Program-made: the position numbers | NCBI GenBank assembly: GCA_041178425.1 | Contig: JBEGVH010000026.1 | Location: 1 to 64,000 of the forward strand | DNA from: Pseudomonadota bacterium | GTDB taxonomy: Bacteria > Bdellovibrionota > Bdellovibrionia > Bdellovibrionales > Bdellovibrionaceae | Direction of reading: 5' to 3' | Length of the DNA stretch: 64,000 nucleotides | Shown here: positions 9,001 to 15,000 of the stretch, piece after piece | Layout: every line of letters begins with the position of its first letter | How positions within the stretch are numbered: position 1 is the stretch's first letter

Positions 9001-12000
9001 GGTGAGCACTTGCCCTGCGGTTCCGGCATTGGAGGGGAGGGTGAGCTGTAAATCGGAACCTAATGCCGTGGGTGCCGAGAGGGAAATTTTCTTGGTGCCA
9101 GAAGAGTCTTTCAGTTGAAGAGTGGCAATACCCGAGGATGAATAATACTTCGTCGAGCTTCCGCTCGCGGCAGCGAGGAGATCGTTAAAGGTCGCCAATG
9201 TGAACGGTGCCGCGGGGCCGTCTGTTAATCTGAGAACGCTCGCGCTCTGAACGCCGCCAACGTTAAAAGTATCAAGAGCATAGGGCGAGGGAGTGATCTC
9301 GACGGGGTCTAAATTTTGTAAACCCGAACCATCATTAAACGACACCTGTAAGTACAGCCGGTCGCCGGCGGCCTTACTATAGCCACCCTCACATTGTGCA
9401 AGGTTCGGAAACGTAAGAGTTGGGCTAAAGATTTTCTCTAAAGAAACCTGACTAGGATCCATGCGTTGCCCGTCGCCAGCAATTAAAGAAAAAGAACCAT
9501 CGCCAGACCGCATATCAACATTAAACTTTTCCGAATACAAAACGCAAGGACGGGAAAGATTCAACGGTCCACGCACACTCATTGTGAATTCAACGTTATT
9601 GGCGGTAAGCGGAGAATTTTGGGCATTGAATACACGCCCTTGGTAAGAAAAGCCAGCCGCCCAAAGAGCGTTTGTCGCTGTCCCAATCAGAACACCTAAA
9701 ATCAATAGAAATTGTTTTCCTCTGCGAGCGATGTGGTTCACAGCGATCAACCTCGTTTAAACGAGACTCTTCAGGAGTCTCTCTAAGATTCTCTTCGGTC
9801 TTTGGTCGTGCTGGCTTAACTTAAATTCAATGGAGTGTTGGTTTTTTTAAGTGGTAAGGGCGTTTTCTCTCACGGCTGCTCCATAGTGAGAAGATTCTCA
9901 GTCTCTTCGTTTATTTTATGTTTGGGAAGTATAGGTTTTGTTGATGGCTGAGTCTCAAAATTGAACATTGCTTATCGCGTGCACTGATTTTATCCTAAAG
10001 GGTGTGTCTAATTTCACGAGGAAACGATGCTTTTTCAATTGGTCTACGGAGAAAAATATTTAACAAGGGTAGGTACGAAGGCAGTTTTTCTTCAGAGTTT
10101 CGTATCTATTGTTTTGCTAGTTTACTCCGTTTCTCTGCGGGCCATCAATACTCTCAATGAAGGTTTTAAAGTACTTCCGAGTGGAAAAGTATCTGTGCAA
10201 GGGCACGGAACTTGTCGAACCTTCGTGAATGCCAGTGCAACAAAAAGTTATTTTATTCCCACTAAAACGTCTAATGAGTACAGCACCTTTGTTTCGAATA
10301 AACCGGCCGATATTAGTTATACCACTTGTCGTTCTTGCAGTGAGATCAAAACTAACAGCGGCGATTATTTAGGGAGTGGCACCTACACGATCGATCCCGA
10401 TGGCGATGGTACGGGTATCGCGGCCTTATCTGCCTACTGTGACATGGTCACCGATGGTGGTGGCTGGACGATGTGGTTCACCACCAATCAATTTTATCAC
10501 CTAGCAGATAGCACCACCAGCAGTGTGGCCTACGGCACCGCTGGATACTCCGTGGATTTAAGATCGTTACCCATCAAAGAAATACTTTATGTTCGGCATA
10601 GCGATGGCGCGAAAGATTGGTTTACGCGTGATTCAGGTACAACCTTTAAAGTGTCTGATTACATTTCGTCGGGTGTTCTCAGTGTGGCCGGTAATACCCT
10701 CGGCACCTGGACGGGCAAAGGCGGCGCTTCCACAGCCTGGAGTTATCAGTTGGTGATCGGTGATAAAACCTGGATGCAGGTGGGATTTATGATGTCGGGC
10801 TATACGGGTAGTTGTTGGAAGGCTCCCAACAATTGGTGTAGTGACGGCTCATCGAATTTTTATCGCCTCGATGGCGAGGGCAATGGCGTCGCCGATTATA
10901 GCGCTTATCACGGTGTTTCGTTTCGTCAAAATGGGCATGGTTACCTCTCGAATCAATTGATGTCGGTGGGAGTGAGGTAGATTCATGAATAAATGTTTCA
11001 TCCTCCTCCTTTTTGTTGTCGCGCGCTCGTCAGTAAGTAGCGCCATCAATACCACGAACGAAGGATACCAACTCACCACGAACACTCGAAAAATAATTTA
11101 TGCCAATAGTATTTGCCGCGTGTTTATGAACACGAGCACAACGAAGACCTATTTTATTCCAACAAAAACAGCGCCTGAATTTAACTCTTTCATTAGTAAT
11201 CCACCCTCAGGAGTGGTCGTTGATACATGTCGGTCGTGCAATGATTTAAAAATTGGCAGTGGTGGAACTCTGGCGAGTGGAGTGTACGATATAGATCCCG
11301 ATGGTTCGGGTGGGCTCGGTACCGTGAAGTTTCTTTGTGATATGACCACTCAAGGCGGAGGATGGACTCTGGTGTGGTCAAACACACGCGGAGGCACGAA
11401 TAAGCCAGTCACCTCAATCACGTGGACTAATGCCACGGCTGGCGGTGTGAGATGTTCAACGGCGAATAGCTCCACCTACGATTTTTCTGGCAGCTGCTCG
11501 ATGATTAGCTCCAATAAAGAAGCCTTTAATTATTTTGTGGGCTTGAACACGTGGAACGCTCTTGGTCGTAACAAACAGTATATGGAGTTTCGCTACACCT
11601 GGAGTTCGGCCTATGGTGTAGCCACCCAGCAAGAAGCTCGCTTTGCCATGCAAAAATTCGATTCTGGCGATAACTATGTCATACGACTCTCCAACATCAA
11701 TCAAACCGTTGGGAGCCAATCTCCAGGTATTTATTCGTATCACAGTGCGAGTGGGTATGCCTTTACCACTTCCGACGCCGATCACGATGTTTACGGCGCC
11801 AACTGCTCCTCTTTATACACCAATAGCCCATTTTGGTATGGAGCCTGTTGGAGCGGAAACATGAATGGCGGGGGAGAGAACGGCCCAGGCACGGGCTATC
11901 AGAATGCTGCTTATTGGACGGGAGCGACCAACGCCGACGGTAACTCTTCGGGTGACGGTGGTGGCAATGGCTGGATGTGGATCCGGGAGTCAGACTACTA

Positions 12001-15000
12001 CTACAGTTGCGCCGAGGCCAAAAATATTGGTGGATTCATTAACTCGGGAACTTATACTATTGATTCTGATGGGCCAGGGGGGGCGGCTGCCGTCAGCACC
12101 AACTGTACGATGTGAGGACAATTGAAATTAAATAAGTTCTTCTAATTCGCAAAAGGCAGTAAAAGGTAAAATTCTAATTCTATCATCGACCTTTTTATCC
12201 AGTTTGCCTCGGTGAACTTGGTAAAACTTGGGTATATTGGTCCGCTGGGCAAAATAATTTATATGAGGAGAAAGATTCCTCTCGCCGGTTTTACATTCGA
12301 CGGCGAAGAGAGGTTTTTTGTTTTTAATGACTACAAAATCAACTTCTCGTCCTAAAACATCTCTTAAAAAACGCAACTCCATTTTGTCGCCAAAACAATC
12401 TTCATGATAATGACAAAATTTTAAAAGATGGCCAGCAACAAAGTTTTCCCAGAGGGCGCCCTGATCTTGATGTTCGCTCCAGTCCCATAGAAAAAGTTTT
12501 TGTTCCTTTTTAACGGCCTTAATTTTTGGAGCCCCAAAGGGAGATATTCGGTAACAGTAATAGACGTTTTCTAAAATGGAAATCCATTTTTCTACAGTTT
12601 TAAAGTCGACTTCTAAATCTTGAGCGAGATTTTTTTTGGAGAGGGGTGATCCTACTCTGTCTGGTAGCGCGTCGATTAAGATTTCGATTTGAGAGATTTC
12701 ACGAACATTTTCGAGGTCACGAATGTCTGAATAAACTATTCTTTCTTTTCGTTGTCGATGCCACCTCTTGAGGTGAGTTGGGCTCTTCTTTAAAAAAGGC
12801 TCCGGAAATCCCCCAAACGTCATGAGCCGTTCAACATCACCGCTTGGAAACTGCTTTTTTAATTCAGGAATAGTCAGCGGATGCATCCGAAAATAATGAT
12901 ACCGACCAAGCAACGAATCGCCACCTTTTCTGTAGTAGTCGAGTCGAGCAGATCCCGTCACCAAAAAATGATGCGTATTTTTCAACTTGTCGTAAAAGCC
13001 CTTGATCAAGTTTCGCCAATTTTTAAATTTATGAATTTCATCGAGCACGATTAGTTTTTCGGTCGCTGGCCATTCACCTTTTTGTATTCGTTTTTTGTCG
13101 TCGAGTGAGTCCCAGTTGAGGTAGGCGCGGTGTCGATCTTTAAAGTTTTTTATTAAGGACTGGGCAAATGTGGTTTTGCCCACTTGCCTGGGGCCCCCTA
13201 AAAATACCATTTTTTCTTCTAAATCGGCTCTAATTTGTTTTTCTAGGTATCGAAGTAAAGTAGACATAATTCCACTTTACTTCGAAGTAAAGTGGAGTCA
13301 AGTCCAAGCGGATAGATTGTGGGCTGTGGGTCGGTGTTTGAGATAAAAGTGCAGAAGCTTACGCTCAAGGGCCAGTAAAAAGGGCCAACAGGAGAGGCGT
13401 TTATTTTTCCTCTAATGGTCGTATCTTAAATCTAAACAATTCTATCGAACTACCAATCAATGGGCTGGTAATCTTTTAAAAATTTTCCGCACCAATGGTG
13501 ACCACTATTCATTCCGTAAAAGAAAGGATCGCAAATGCGAGCCGCCCCATCCACAATATCGAGTGGCGGTTGAAAGTCGTGGGTGGCTTGATTTTTTTGT
13601 GAGAGTTGGGCTGGGTCTTCGTCGGTTACCCAACCGGTATCCACCGCGTTCATGTAAATACCATCTTTCGCTAAATCCGACGCTGACGTGTGCGTGAGCA
13701 TATTCAGAGCGGCCTTCGCCATATTAGTGTGCGGGTGGCGATCCGGTTTAGTGAAGCGATAGAATTTTCCTTCCATGGCCGTCACATTCACAATGTGTTT
13801 ATCACCAGTGTAATCACGGCGCATGAGGGGTGAGAGTTTGCTGCACAAAACAAAGGGTGCTACCGCATTGATAAGTTGCACCTCCAAAAGTTCTGGTGTG
13901 GGCACGTCGTTAAGTTTGTAGCGCCAGCTGTTGGTTTCGCGCAAATCCACTTGTTGAAGATCGGCATCGAGTTTTCCCACCGGAAAAACCTCTTCGGCCT
14001 TAATGCGGCTATCAAACGAGTAGGGCATTTGTGAGAGTTGCGCCGACGCCAAGATTCCCATGCCGGGGCCTAGTTGCGACCACTCTATTGGGAGAGCGCT
14101 GTCTTTGGATGCACCCGAAAGACAAAGATCTTGCACTTGTTGTTTACACTGATGAAAGTTTTCAAGAAGCGCTTGCGCCTTCGTTGGAAGAGTGTCGAGT
14201 GCGGCCATCTCTTGCTCCATCATGTGGGCAAAAAAACCGGGCGGGCGTCGCACCGTTTGTGCGGCATTGTTTATAAGAATATCAAGGCGCGGGAGTTTTT
14301 GGTTCATATAGGCAGTAAAGATCTCCACGCTGGGAGTGTGGCGAAGATCAAGACCATAAATTTCTAAGCGCTCCGACCACTGATCGTAATCAGGTTCTTT
14401 AGCAAAGCGAAGAGCGGAATCGACCGGAAACCGGGTGGTGGCAATCACTCGAGCACCCGCTCGGAGCATCATTAATGTGGCCTGATACCCAATTTTCAAT
14501 CGAGACCCAGTGATCAAAGCAATGCGCCCATGAAGGGGTGCTGATTGAAAACGTTTTTGGTAATTCACTTCGCCGCATGTCCAGCACATGGCATCGTAGA
14601 AGTAATGAAGCTTAGTAAACTCTGCCTTGCACACATAGCAGTTCCTTGGCGAGTGGAGTTCACCCGGCGAACTGAGTGGTGCCCCCTCGGCTGAGGCTGT
14701 TATTTGCGCTGGAGCCACAAAGACACTCGTGGTGCGTGCTTCACGAATACCGGTTTTTGCGCGAGCGGAGCGATCGTTAATGACCACGTGCTTGTGTCGT
14801 TCGGTGTAGCTGGCTTTTTGGCGTTTTTTTAAGTCATCACGGTGAGGGCGGGCTAAGCGACCGGCAGCTTTTAAGAGCGCAATCCGCTCGGCTTCGCTGA
14901 GTTGGGCAAAGAGTTCGGGTTGATCCGCGAGCGTTTCGAGTGTGCGCAAACAATTTTGAAAAGTGGACTCTGGCACAGTCTCTGTGTTGGCCGTCTTATT

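Follow-up and report, generated by a model that had tools for sequence, protein, structure and literature searches.

In the window, the stretch of 64,000 nucleotides from contig JBEGVH010000026.1 that was analysed as a whole, two open reading frames lie in tandem on the same strand and only 4 nt apart, at 10027-10980 (P1, gene g01768) and 10985-12115 (P2, gene g01769). An earlier note on this DNA had described them as a tandem pair, and both co-oriented ORFs were recovered. The features of the locus are as follows.

7924..9750, minus strand: MAT fibre gene of 608 aa, divergent from P1 and P2; NF053851 (Bdello_MAT_N) 79.5 bits, cut-off 60
9751..10026, no strand: divergent intergenic region of 276 bp from the MAT gene to P1, sequence read
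10027..10980, plus strand: P1, ORF of 317 aa, GAGGAAA 5 nt upstream of the ATG
Parts of P1: predicted signal peptide, about aa 1-38; N-module, aa 39-102 (10141-10332); putative divergent FReD-fold head, aa 103-317 (10333-10977)
10985..12115, plus strand: P2, ORF of 376 aa
Parts of P2: predicted signal peptide, aa 1-19; N-module, aa 20-83 (11042-11233); predicted canonical FReD, aa 84-334 (11234-11986); orphan A-subdomain tail, aa 335-376 (11987-12112)
11780..11848, plus strand: predicted Ca2+ loop and P-subdomain disulfide of P2 (D266, D268, C274 ... C288)
11987..12115, plus strand: tail at the C-terminus of P2, formed by a second A subdomain (Cys-to-Cys), which is also the second NF040941 stretch

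The MAT gene has no S74 domain, and the Pfam scan found in it no family besides a sub-threshold PapJ match. It is divergent from P1 and P2, not co-transcribed with them; no match to a sigma-70-type promoter was found within 9600-12400. The P1/P2 gene order recurs in contigs from two other studies at approximately 97-98% identity with indel-free coding parts, and by this recurrence in independent contigs the locus is real. DNA comparison with the four congeners gave no match for the block at about 6520-12140, and TARSH_C, G8/CEMIP and B_lectin are further animal-like extracellular domains in the vicinity.

Both proteins exceed the cut-off of NCBIfam NF040941 (30 bits), P1 with 55.3 bits and P2 with 74.7 bits in two stretches. 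Against Pfam Fibrinogen_C (PF00147, gathering cut-off 22 bits) P1 reaches 24.5 bits, confined to profile positions 2-46, and P2 scores 49.7 bits over positions 3-202 of 221, which reproduces the span reported before. The A-subdomain Cys pair and the YCDM...GGGWT motif are present in P1 (C104, C138) and P2 (C85, C118), in columns that are invariant or nearly so (alignments A1 and A2). An AF2 model of P2 (pLDDT 89.6, pTM 0.87) matches ANGPTL6, ficolins, MFAP4 and FIBCD1 in Foldseek (E ~1e-11, TMt 0.70-0.78), and in VIA it covers 208 of the 214 residues of H-ficolin at Z 20.0 and rmsd 3.1 A, with FGL1 and fibrinogen also at Z 20. As modelled, the P2 head is a canonical FReD with the three-subdomain A+B+P fold. 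The statement that the family has no match to animal FReDs fails for P2, which finds solved animal FReD chains by phmmer at best E values of 3.8e-10 to 1e-5.

The same phmmer alignment places D266 and D268 of P2 on Asp198 and Asp200 of tachylectin-5A, and C274 and C288 on Cys206 and Cys219. The Ca2+ site of FIBCD1 consists of two Asp side chains and two main-chain carbonyls followed by a Cys-Cys bridge; its S1 acetyl pocket is formed by Tyr405, His415, Tyr431, Ala432 and Trp443/Tyr, and Ala is the sole residue to fit the pocket's base (PMC3908420). Judged from the alignment, P2 keeps the Ca2+ site, with both ligand Asp and the P-subdomain disulfide. Two pocket residues are kept as Tyr278 and Tyr305, while His415 is replaced by Trp289 and Ala432 by Gln306 (tachylectin-5A alignment, FIBCD1 numbering), so that 2 of 4 alignable pocket positions are changed, the fifth falling outside the alignment. 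P2 thus appears to be without the conserved S1 acetyl pocket, which seems to have been remodelled, and because of the two replacements an acetyl-sugar ligand is not to be assumed. Since the putative Ca2+ site lies beside this remodelled pocket, P2 would most likely depend on Ca2+ in binding a surface carbohydrate or another small epitope. A collagen or coiled-coil stretch for oligomerisation is absent, and the 64-aa beta-rich N-module stands in that place.

The P1 head is more divergent. Its AF2 model has a mean pLDDT of 67.5, with approximately 70-90 in the head. In VIA, residues 98-317 of this model (pLDDT 67.5) reach Z 8.9 against intelectin-1 and 7.3-7.8 against fibrinogen, ficolin, ANGPTL3 and FGL1, the best unrelated row having only Z 4.4. 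The superposition on intelectin-1 aligns 194 residues at rmsd 4.4 A and 13% identity. With moderate confidence, and more weakly than for P2, we consider the P1 head to be a divergent FReD/intelectin-like fold; a Ca2+ site is not detectable in it by sequence comparison. Relatives of this head at 50-60% identity occur in Halomonas, in alphaproteobacterial MAGs and in He_PIG-domain proteins. The earlier doubt about the fold of the family is removed for P2 (Z 20.0) and eased for P1 (Z 7.3-8.9, from a model of pLDDT 67.5), these being the two members modelled.

The tail of P2 scores 25.4 bits with NF040941, under the cut-off, covers profile positions 1-37 and is ended by TGA. The protein halts at 'CTM*', exactly at the point where its relatives continue into a second head; in P0002, P0003 and P0006 the next YCDM..GGGW motif lies at residues 369-387. 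In both run X2 and run X3 the TGA is spanned by independent contigs. A paralog at C21:19859-20962 is 69-74% identical to P2 and has lost the Ca2+ loop. Between the two genes synonymous sites are saturated (pS 0.79-0.92), and pN amounts to 0.08-0.11 for the N-module, for the A+B subdomains and for the tail, compared with 0.32 for the P subdomain; therefore the scaffold is conserved and the binding part is changing. Even the tails are 81-82% identical despite saturated synonymous sites (pS 0.79, pN 0.11).

The six-frame genome search yielded 11 ORFs above the NF040941 cut-off, one more than the ten members counted before, and two partial second motifs under the cut-off, at the C-termini of P2 and the paralog. 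Eight ORFs, rather than seven, are short (227-376 aa), and seven of these carry the N-module. This module had correctly been recognised as common to most short members; its size is approximately 64 aa after the signal peptide, not 90. It contains two conserved Cys, is beta-rich and family-specific, and matches no known fold or family in Pfam or the PDB. Its profile matched 12 ORFs (E 1e-16 to 1e-30): nine with a FReD head, two of them behind a glycine-rich domain (Gly_rich_2 in both, in agreement with the earlier note), two with a glycine-rich domain only, and one with an unclassified head. Two FReD heads are without the module, in one short protein and at the tip of one MAT fibre. The whole family therefore comprises fourteen genes, the 11 FReD ORFs and three N-module genes with other C-terminal parts.

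The heads fall into nine sequence classes, with likeness past residues 50-80 in 2 pairs only. In the nine heads beyond P2 and the paralog, likeness is limited to the initial 50-80 residues and the final strand, and a P subdomain is undetectable by sequence. All heads keep the FReD scaffold, made up of the A subdomain, the GGGWT strand and a final aromatic-hydrophobic-basic strand. The description as a ficolin-like glycan binder is thus arguable for P2 only, where the Ca2+ site is kept and the acetyl pocket altered at 2 of 4 positions; it does not carry over to the rest of the family, the paralog having lost the Ca2+ loop and the other nine heads sharing only their ends. The idea of a modular head is borne out, since the head is found on MAT fibres (G000 C30, G030), behind the N-module, and also on stalks of choice-of-anchor-D and OmpL47 type.

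The family is indeed expanded, with 13 NF040941 motif matches in this genome compared with at most 6 in every other genome of the order. The rarity claimed for it (9 genomes among the order's 383) was wrong by about eight-fold: NF040941 is above cut-off in 73 of 384 genomes and 26 of 121 genera, and PF00147 in 61 of 384 genomes. In the phylum sample the count is 67 of 401 genomes, and in control genomes 0 of 14. What is rare is the near-full-length head (at least ~180 of the 221 Pfam positions), seen in 6 of the 384 genomes among the matches listed; near-full-length canonical heads are absent from the four congeners. The named relatives are from Bdellovibrio bacteriovorus, further strains of Bdellovibrio, and Bacteriovorax.

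The genome contains 11 MAT genes, and 4 of the 11 FReD loci directly adjoin one, P1/P2 among them; the random mean is 0.084 and none of 50,000 shuffles reached 4. The other 7 loci lie away from MAT genes. Among ten other genomes, 7 of 31 FReD loci adjoin a MAT gene and 24 do not. The linkage of FReD and MAT genes is well above chance, and it is new. One genome (G137) has the order MAT, FReDx2, MAT, FReDx2, MAT with 4-nt overlaps, the MAT-FReD overlap occurring twice; a second (G011) has a tight run of MAT, FReDx2 and FReDx2, and a third (G012) has FReD followed by MAT. In these three genomes 5 MAT genes neighbouring FReD genes were scanned, and each of them ends in Peptidase_S74. In the present genome the member at C21:7599-8657 is flanked by two MAT genes ending in Peptidase_S74, and one of the two glycine-rich-only N-module genes adjoins a MAT gene. 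Fused tips are found in two MAT proteins (G000 C30 and G030); the first, at C30:268099-270807, is the member that had been noted as a fibre tip, with 902 aa, a Bdello_MAT_N start (NF053851, 86.6 bits) and a FReD end. P1 and P2 themselves give no match to NF053851 at E <= 0.1 and have no long fibre shaft, the N-module alone preceding the head in 317 and 376 aa.

Taken as a whole, we think it rather probable that these are Sec-exported modular FReD binding proteins working with MAT fibres in the recognition or holding of prey. P1 and P2 would form a two-gene unit for such proteins, P2 being an ancestral-looking canonical head, and the distal, presumably ligand-binding part of the heads would have diversified into the nine classes on a constant scaffold. 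Together with the MAT surface fibres the family may recognise or hold prey envelopes. The organism is uncultured, and its predatory lifestyle is inferred solely from its relatives and the 11 MAT genes. To this extent the earlier reading of ficolin-like prey-recognition heads is partly supported. Against the interpretation given here stand the replaced pocket His and Ala of P2, the paralog without the Ca2+ loop and the nine heads without a detectable P subdomain, as well as the loci that are away from MAT genes (7 of 11 in this genome, 24 of 31 in the ten others), the divergent neighbour of P1/P2, and, unlike in ficolins, the missing oligomerisation region.

Possible, though on balance doubtful, is a more specific arrangement in which the N-module docks the small proteins onto MAT fibre ends, chiefly those of S74 type after chaperone cleavage, so that one fibre would have exchangeable heads. 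In the main text of the MAT paper (PMC10769870) the words operon, accessory and gp38 each occur 0 times, the majority of loci are away from MAT genes, and the MAT neighbour of P1/P2 is divergent and without S74. Such docking would nevertheless suit the overlapping genes of G137, the tight run of G011 and the S74 ends of 5 of 5 scanned neighbours and of both genes flanking C21:7599-8657; it would also suit four kinds of C-terminal part on one N-module, the two glycine-rich-only genes (one adjoining a MAT gene) and a module that matches no known fold or family. If true, about 11 fibres and 14 family proteins with at least 10 different heads would allow the mixing of stalks and heads, a combinatorial prey recognition akin to phage fibre and adhesin pairs and not known to have been described for any bacterial predator. 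We regard it as improbable that the proteins are instead free secreted lectins or matrix proteins outside predation (self-aggregation, biofilm, environmental polysaccharide), linked to MAT genes by a shared accessory surface-protein island. GGGWT_bact heads do occur on many stalks and also in non-predatory phyla, with relatives of P1 in Halomonas and alphaproteobacterial MAGs, the ~6520-12140 block is without a DNA match in the congeners, and TARSH_C, G8/CEMIP and B_lectin domains are close by; yet co-location on an island alone hardly explains overlapping MAT-FReD pairs and head-MAT fusions, and the domain occurs in 17-19% of genomes of the phylum and order as against 0 of 14 controls. The genes of phage tail-fibre assembly proteins are positioned directly downstream of fibre genes, and some FReD genes lie immediately 3' of fibre genes (G137, G011), as if they might fold MAT fibres with no adhesin role. 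This is very unlikely: the adjacent MAT genes carry their own S74 intramolecular chaperone, the predicted signal peptide, disulfides, Ca2+ site and lectin fold suit a binding protein, and diverse heads with a fast-evolving P subdomain are unexpected for a chaperone.

The proposed modular binding proteins can be set beside several known systems. Like ficolins, tachylectin-5A and FIBCD1, P2 has the predicted A+B+P fold, both Ca2+ Asp, the pocket-side disulfide and two pocket Tyr; it differs from them in having approximately 20-23% identity, Trp for the pocket His and Gln for the Ala, an unrelated 64-aa N-module instead of a collagen or coiled-coil stalk, and an extra C-terminal A subdomain. NF040941 itself (GGGWT_bact, "fibrinogen-like YCDxxxxGGGW domain-containing protein") represents the same 46-position motif, above cut-off in P1 and P2. 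Its examples are 734-736-aa proteins of Bdellovibrio bacteriovorus and Bdellovibrio sp. BCCA and a 1205-aa protein of Bacteriovorax sp. BSW11_IV; the literature search found a name and no functional paper for this family. With the closest relatives the alignment starts in the N-module and extends through the first head, at 46-52% identity; they have 2-5 heads per chain, whereas this genome has 11 single-head genes, with P2 and the paralog ending in an orphan A subdomain.

The MAT fibres of Bdellovibrio bacteriovorus, from the same organism group, likewise provide variable tips as a repertoire for recognising prey (Caulton et al., 2024; PMC10769870), and P1/P2 differ from them in lacking the ~130-aa MAT N-domain and the shaft. 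The tips listed for them are S74, novel beta-rich, TNF-like, C-type lectin, B30.2/SPRY, FGE, beta-sandwich, collagen-type and invasin/intimin domains (PMC10769870). A fibrinogen-like domain is absent among the tips given there: fibrinogen and ficolin have 0 occurrences in the main text, as the earlier note had stated, and likewise in supplementary file 1 (Tables S1, S3 and S4). Intelectin-1, a divergent lectin of the FReD superfamily and the top structural match of the P1 head (Z 8.9, model pLDDT 67.5), resembles P1 in that sequence likeness to FReDs is confined to the domain start. In T2/S16-type phages the gp38 adhesin, a small protein encoded beside the fibre gene, sits on the gp37 long tail fibre, and it has a conserved attachment part, a variable binding end and a glycine-rich part. 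The N-module proteins would be comparable to gp38 in gene position and layout only, and some of them also have a glycine-rich part.

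The tandem pair g01768/g01769 described in the earlier note consists of two co-oriented ORFs, here called P1 and P2, which are separated by 4 nt, and GAGGAAA precedes the ATG of P1. Both pass the cut-off of NF040941 (GGGWT_bact), the family of the YCDxxxxGGGW motif, with 55.3 and 74.7 bits, and that of Pfam Fibrinogen_C with 24.5 and 49.7 bits. The Fibrinogen_C match of P2 spans profile positions 3-202 of 221, as the same note had reported, and that of P1 only 2-46. A sigma-70 promoter scan of positions 9600-12400 returned 0 sites, and a look-up of RNA records for 9700-12200 listed none. 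The pair adjoins a gene for a mosaic adhesive trimer (MAT), the prey-recognition fibre characterized by the N-domain NF053851, and the region is organized as follows:

6625-7119, minus strand: ORF of 164 aa with a TARSH_C domain (Target of Nesh-SH3 C-terminal domain; Pfam E 2.4e-21), on the same strand as the MAT gene and two genes further downstream
7160-7963: ORF of 267 aa between the TARSH_C ORF and the MAT gene, no family assigned
7924-9750, minus strand: MAT fibre gene, 608 aa, upstream of P1 and divergent from it (NF053851 79.5 bits, cut-off 60)
10027-10980, plus strand: P1, 317 aa
10985-12115, plus strand: P2, 376 aa
12128-13267, minus strand: AAA_14/DUF4143 ATPase gene, downstream of P2 and convergent with it, 12 nt between the stop codons

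TARSH_C has been described chiefly in extracellular matrix proteins of animals. The ATPase gene has weak DNA matches at several sites in this genome and its congeners, which suggests a multi-copy family. No DNA match to the block of about 6520-12140 was found in the congeners, and the infC side is 76-78% identical; a simple insertion between infC and the SDR gene was ruled out, since these flanks lie on separate contigs in the congeners.

P1 and P2 share the same order of parts, in which a hydrophobic signal-like segment ending A|IN is followed by an N-terminal module of about 64 residues (the N-module) and then by the fibrinogen-related domain (FReD) head. In the N-module two Cys are conserved and the core F-I/V-P-T...E...F hardly varies, and the profile of the module matches 12 ORFs of the genome (E 1e-16 to 1e-30), namely nine FReD proteins (with Gly_rich_2 separating module and head in two of them), two proteins in which Gly_rich_2 alone follows the module, and one with a C-terminal part that has no assigned family. 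The two genes for N-module and Gly_rich_2 without FReD are C4:5793-6962 and C6:123387-124580; one converges on a MAT gene and the other stands in tandem with the FReD gene C6:122269-123204. Searches with the N-module at E <= 10 gave single chance matches in Pfam and none among PDB sequences, its VIA comparison (P2 residues 20-83, taken within the P2 model) returned rows of Z 2-3.7 only, and the ESM Atlas held no usable feature match and structural rows of TM <= 0.48.

The structural model of P2, built from a 59-row alignment, has a mean pLDDT of 89.6 and a pTM of 0.87, and Foldseek matched it to ANGPTL6, M-, H- and L-ficolin, MFAP4, FIBCD1, tenascin and tachylectin-5A (TL5A) at E ~1e-11 and TMt 0.70-0.78. 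H-ficolin scored Z 20.0 in VIA, with 208 of its 214 residues aligned to the model at an rmsd of 3.1 A, and FGL1 and fibrinogen were similar. A search with the sequence itself matched 41 distinct solved chains (E <= 1), among which TL5A ranks first with E 3.8e-10. The caveats of the earlier note, that the fold was unconfirmed and that animal matches were absent, are thus lifted at least for P2. An oligomer prediction with three copies of P2 residues 20-334 and the P2 alignment scored 0.00, was run without controls, and bears on binding neither way.

For P1 the model is of moderate confidence (mean pLDDT 67.5, head about 70-90), and it is the sole basis for homology of the head past the first ~100 residues. 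The best seven VIA rows all belong to the fibrinogen superfamily and cover model residues 98-317, intelectin-1 having Z 8.9, and fibrinogen, H-ficolin, ANGPTL3 and FGL1 Z 7.3-7.8; an unrelated row comes next with Z 4.4. When the profiles of the P1 and P2 families were compared, only the first ~100 residues aligned. Taken together, these results point to the modelled P1 head as a strongly remodelled FReD type. Relatives of this head type with 50-60% identity occur in Halomonas, in alphaproteobacterial MAGs and in He_PIG-domain proteins.

A six-frame search of the genome found 11 ORFs over the NF040941 cut-off, of which eight are short (227-376 aa), two are Gly-rich (616 and 629 aa) and one is a MAT protein of 902 aa with the head at its end. 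Past the first 50-80 residues the heads are alike in two pairs only, P2 with its paralog C21:19859-20962 (67-69%) and a C14/C16 pair (70%), and therefore nine head classes are present. Ten of the 11 heads end with a hydrophobic residue and Arg or Lys (-VR or -VK in eight of those), a strand that presumably corresponds in character to the last strand of animal FReDs; the equivalent strand of P2, WMWIRE, is internal. Several further genes lie near these loci. Divergent beside the C14 Gly-rich FReD gene is C14:127165-129894 (L020:9165-11891, plus strand), which encodes a 909-aa G8 and CEMIP beta-helix protein (E 8e-67) of animal-like extracellular architecture. Just past the window end, C26:66151-66786 (L014:9154-9786, minus strand) is an ORF of 211 aa with partial B_lectin/putidacin-L1-like lectin matches below curated cut-offs, two genes from the FReD gene C26:64350-65312. 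Two ORFs of 255 aa, C26:67134-67901 and C6:119477-120244, share the same weak match to a REP-associated tyrosine transposase (~35 bits, cut-off 80) and sit two to three genes from two different FReD loci.

Between P2 and its paralog nearly all synonymous sites differ (pS 0.79-0.92), and the duplication is therefore old. The pN values are 0.08 for the N-module, 0.11 for the A+B subdomains, 0.11 for the C-terminal tail and 0.32 for the P subdomain, and in the paralog the Ca2+ loop has been shortened by eight residues. By these substitution patterns, the scaffold is under purifying selection while the predicted ligand-binding part is changing. At the C-terminus of both proteins stands another complete A subdomain, running from Cys to Cys, with 'CTM*' as its end. 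In relatives of 736-936 aa the next YCDM..GGGWT occurs at exactly that point, and the chain goes on with heads two to four. Beyond either stop no frame contains a homologous continuation, so that a split gene or read-through was ruled out. Contigs of two other studies span the P2 stop with no indel, and conservation of the tail equals that of the scaffold; both observations argue for a maintained feature, which probably caps the preceding head, rather than a decaying stump.

The domain was held in the earlier note to be rare in the order, a claim that fails. NF040941 passes its cut-off in 73 of 384 genomes of the order (26 of 121 genera), and in 67 of 401 genomes of a phylum sample; PF00147 does so in 61 of the 384, and the N-module profile matches at E <= 0.001 in 72 (28 of 121 genera). 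Near-full-length Pfam matches are confined to 6 of 384 genomes, and 14 control genomes gave 0 for both NF040941 and PF00147. The genome under study has the highest copy number of the order with 13 motif matches and 12 N-modules, any other having at most six of either, and outside the order one genome of the phylum sample has eight motif matches. Motif and N-module are absent from all four congeners. Whereas NF040941 relatives carry two to five heads per chain, the heads here are encoded in separate single-head genes. Named relatives come from Bdellovibrio bacteriovorus, other Bdellovibrio strains and Bacteriovorax, with an automatic NCBIfam name only. A recent transfer from animals is ruled out by the ~20% identity to animal domains and by 1943 library representatives at E <= 0.001. 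Very large metagenomic proteins also occur in the library, each matched in 12-15 FReD stretches (P0008, 4522 aa; P0009, 3103 aa; P0011, 4035 aa), and the phylum family f22 comprises proteins of ~1190-1210 aa with five motifs each.

The MAT N-domain profile matched 11 times in the genome, in 10 cases above its cut-off. Leaving the MAT fusion out of the count, four of 11 N-module/FReD loci directly adjoin a MAT gene, namely the window pair, C21:7599 (between two MAT genes of the type ending in Peptidase_S74, or S74), C21:26395 and C4:5793. Random placement on a crude 2578-gene map, built by greedy ORF choice and lacking a MAT gene that runs off its contig, gave a mean of 0.084 adjacent loci, and 0 of 50,000 shuffles reached four. 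Similar arrangements recur in other genomes. In G137, MAT genes of 1822, 1827 and 1478 aa alternate with two genes of 488 and 487 aa for an N-module and two FReDs, each of which shares 4 nt with the stop of the MAT gene before it. A MAT gene (1416 aa) precedes genes of 475 and 488 aa in G011, and a FReD gene (265 aa) precedes one (1126 aa) in G012; in these three genomes, five MAT genes next to FReD genes were scanned, and each ends in Peptidase_S74. By coordinates only, an N-module gene directly follows a MAT gene in each of G047 and G036, G227 has one adjacent pair, G091 has one within ~1.2 kb, and G331, G200 and G189 have no MAT-adjacent locus. Across ten other genomes, 7 of 31 loci adjoin a MAT gene, many of the misses being on short contigs. 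Heads are also fused to stalks in the five long ORFs examined, one with the MAT N-domain (G030), three with choice-of-anchor-D and one with OmpL47-type barrels.

We consider it probable that proteins of the P1/P2 type are secreted, have a binding function and cooperate with MAT fibres in recognizing prey. A more specific arrangement, in which the N-module would dock the heads onto S74-type fibres in the manner of phage adhesins, fits the overlapping MAT-FReD gene pairs and is offered tentatively as a possibility. That the proteins are free lectins without a role in predation is ranked as less likely and seems doubtful, and that they are fibre-assembly helpers would be very improbable. Under the favoured reading of joint action with the fibres, the locus points to a second, genetically coupled recognition layer, made up of small secreted proteins that share an N-module and differ strongly in their fibrinogen-type heads. 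The genes of some of these proteins overlap with those of S74-type fibres, and such fibres lack a discrete tip domain. The recognition of very different prey by Bdellovibrio-type predators is only partly accounted for by MAT fibres, described in 2024. The main text and supplementary file 1 of that work contain no fibrinogen-like tip, and the main text does not mention accessory genes (PMC10769870). A literature search for bacterial FReDs in predators found none (for Bdellovibrio and fibrinogen, among the best 15 of 24 matches), and PMC13147790 has 0 occurrences of fibrinogen. The N-module family is new, and so are its coupling to MAT genes and the contrast within one genome between a conserved scaffold and a variable binding subdomain. 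If the heads do bind prey envelopes, alone or on fibres, the known recognition repertoire would be widened, and small tractable domains with homologues in cultured Bdellovibrio strains would become available for glycan-array, structural and prey-range work.

The FReD lectin fold is best known from animal innate immunity, and the locus documents a bacterial lineage of it, in which a conserved scaffold and a fast-changing binding subdomain are seen in one genome. The site residues of P2 were taken from its alignment with TL5A and read against the residue roles in FIBCD1 and TL5A as set out in parts of PMC3908420. Kept in P2 are the Ca2+-ligand Asp (D266, D268), the C274-C288 disulfide, whose equivalent joins Ca2+ site and pocket, and the pocket Tyr (Y278, Y305). 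The majority consensus of the 59-row alignment, which gives a residue where at least 50% of rows share it, is TxDxDxD....NC...Y...WWY..CW, and C274, W284, Y285 and C288 are at least 90% conserved. In contrast to FIBCD1 and TL5A, the pocket His is replaced by Trp289 and the pocket-base Ala, the only residue there that would admit an acetyl methyl (PMC3908420), by Gln306. With the Ca2+ residues kept but His and Ala changed, a Ca2+-dependent binding site is plausible for P2, and a specificity for acetyl groups is not.
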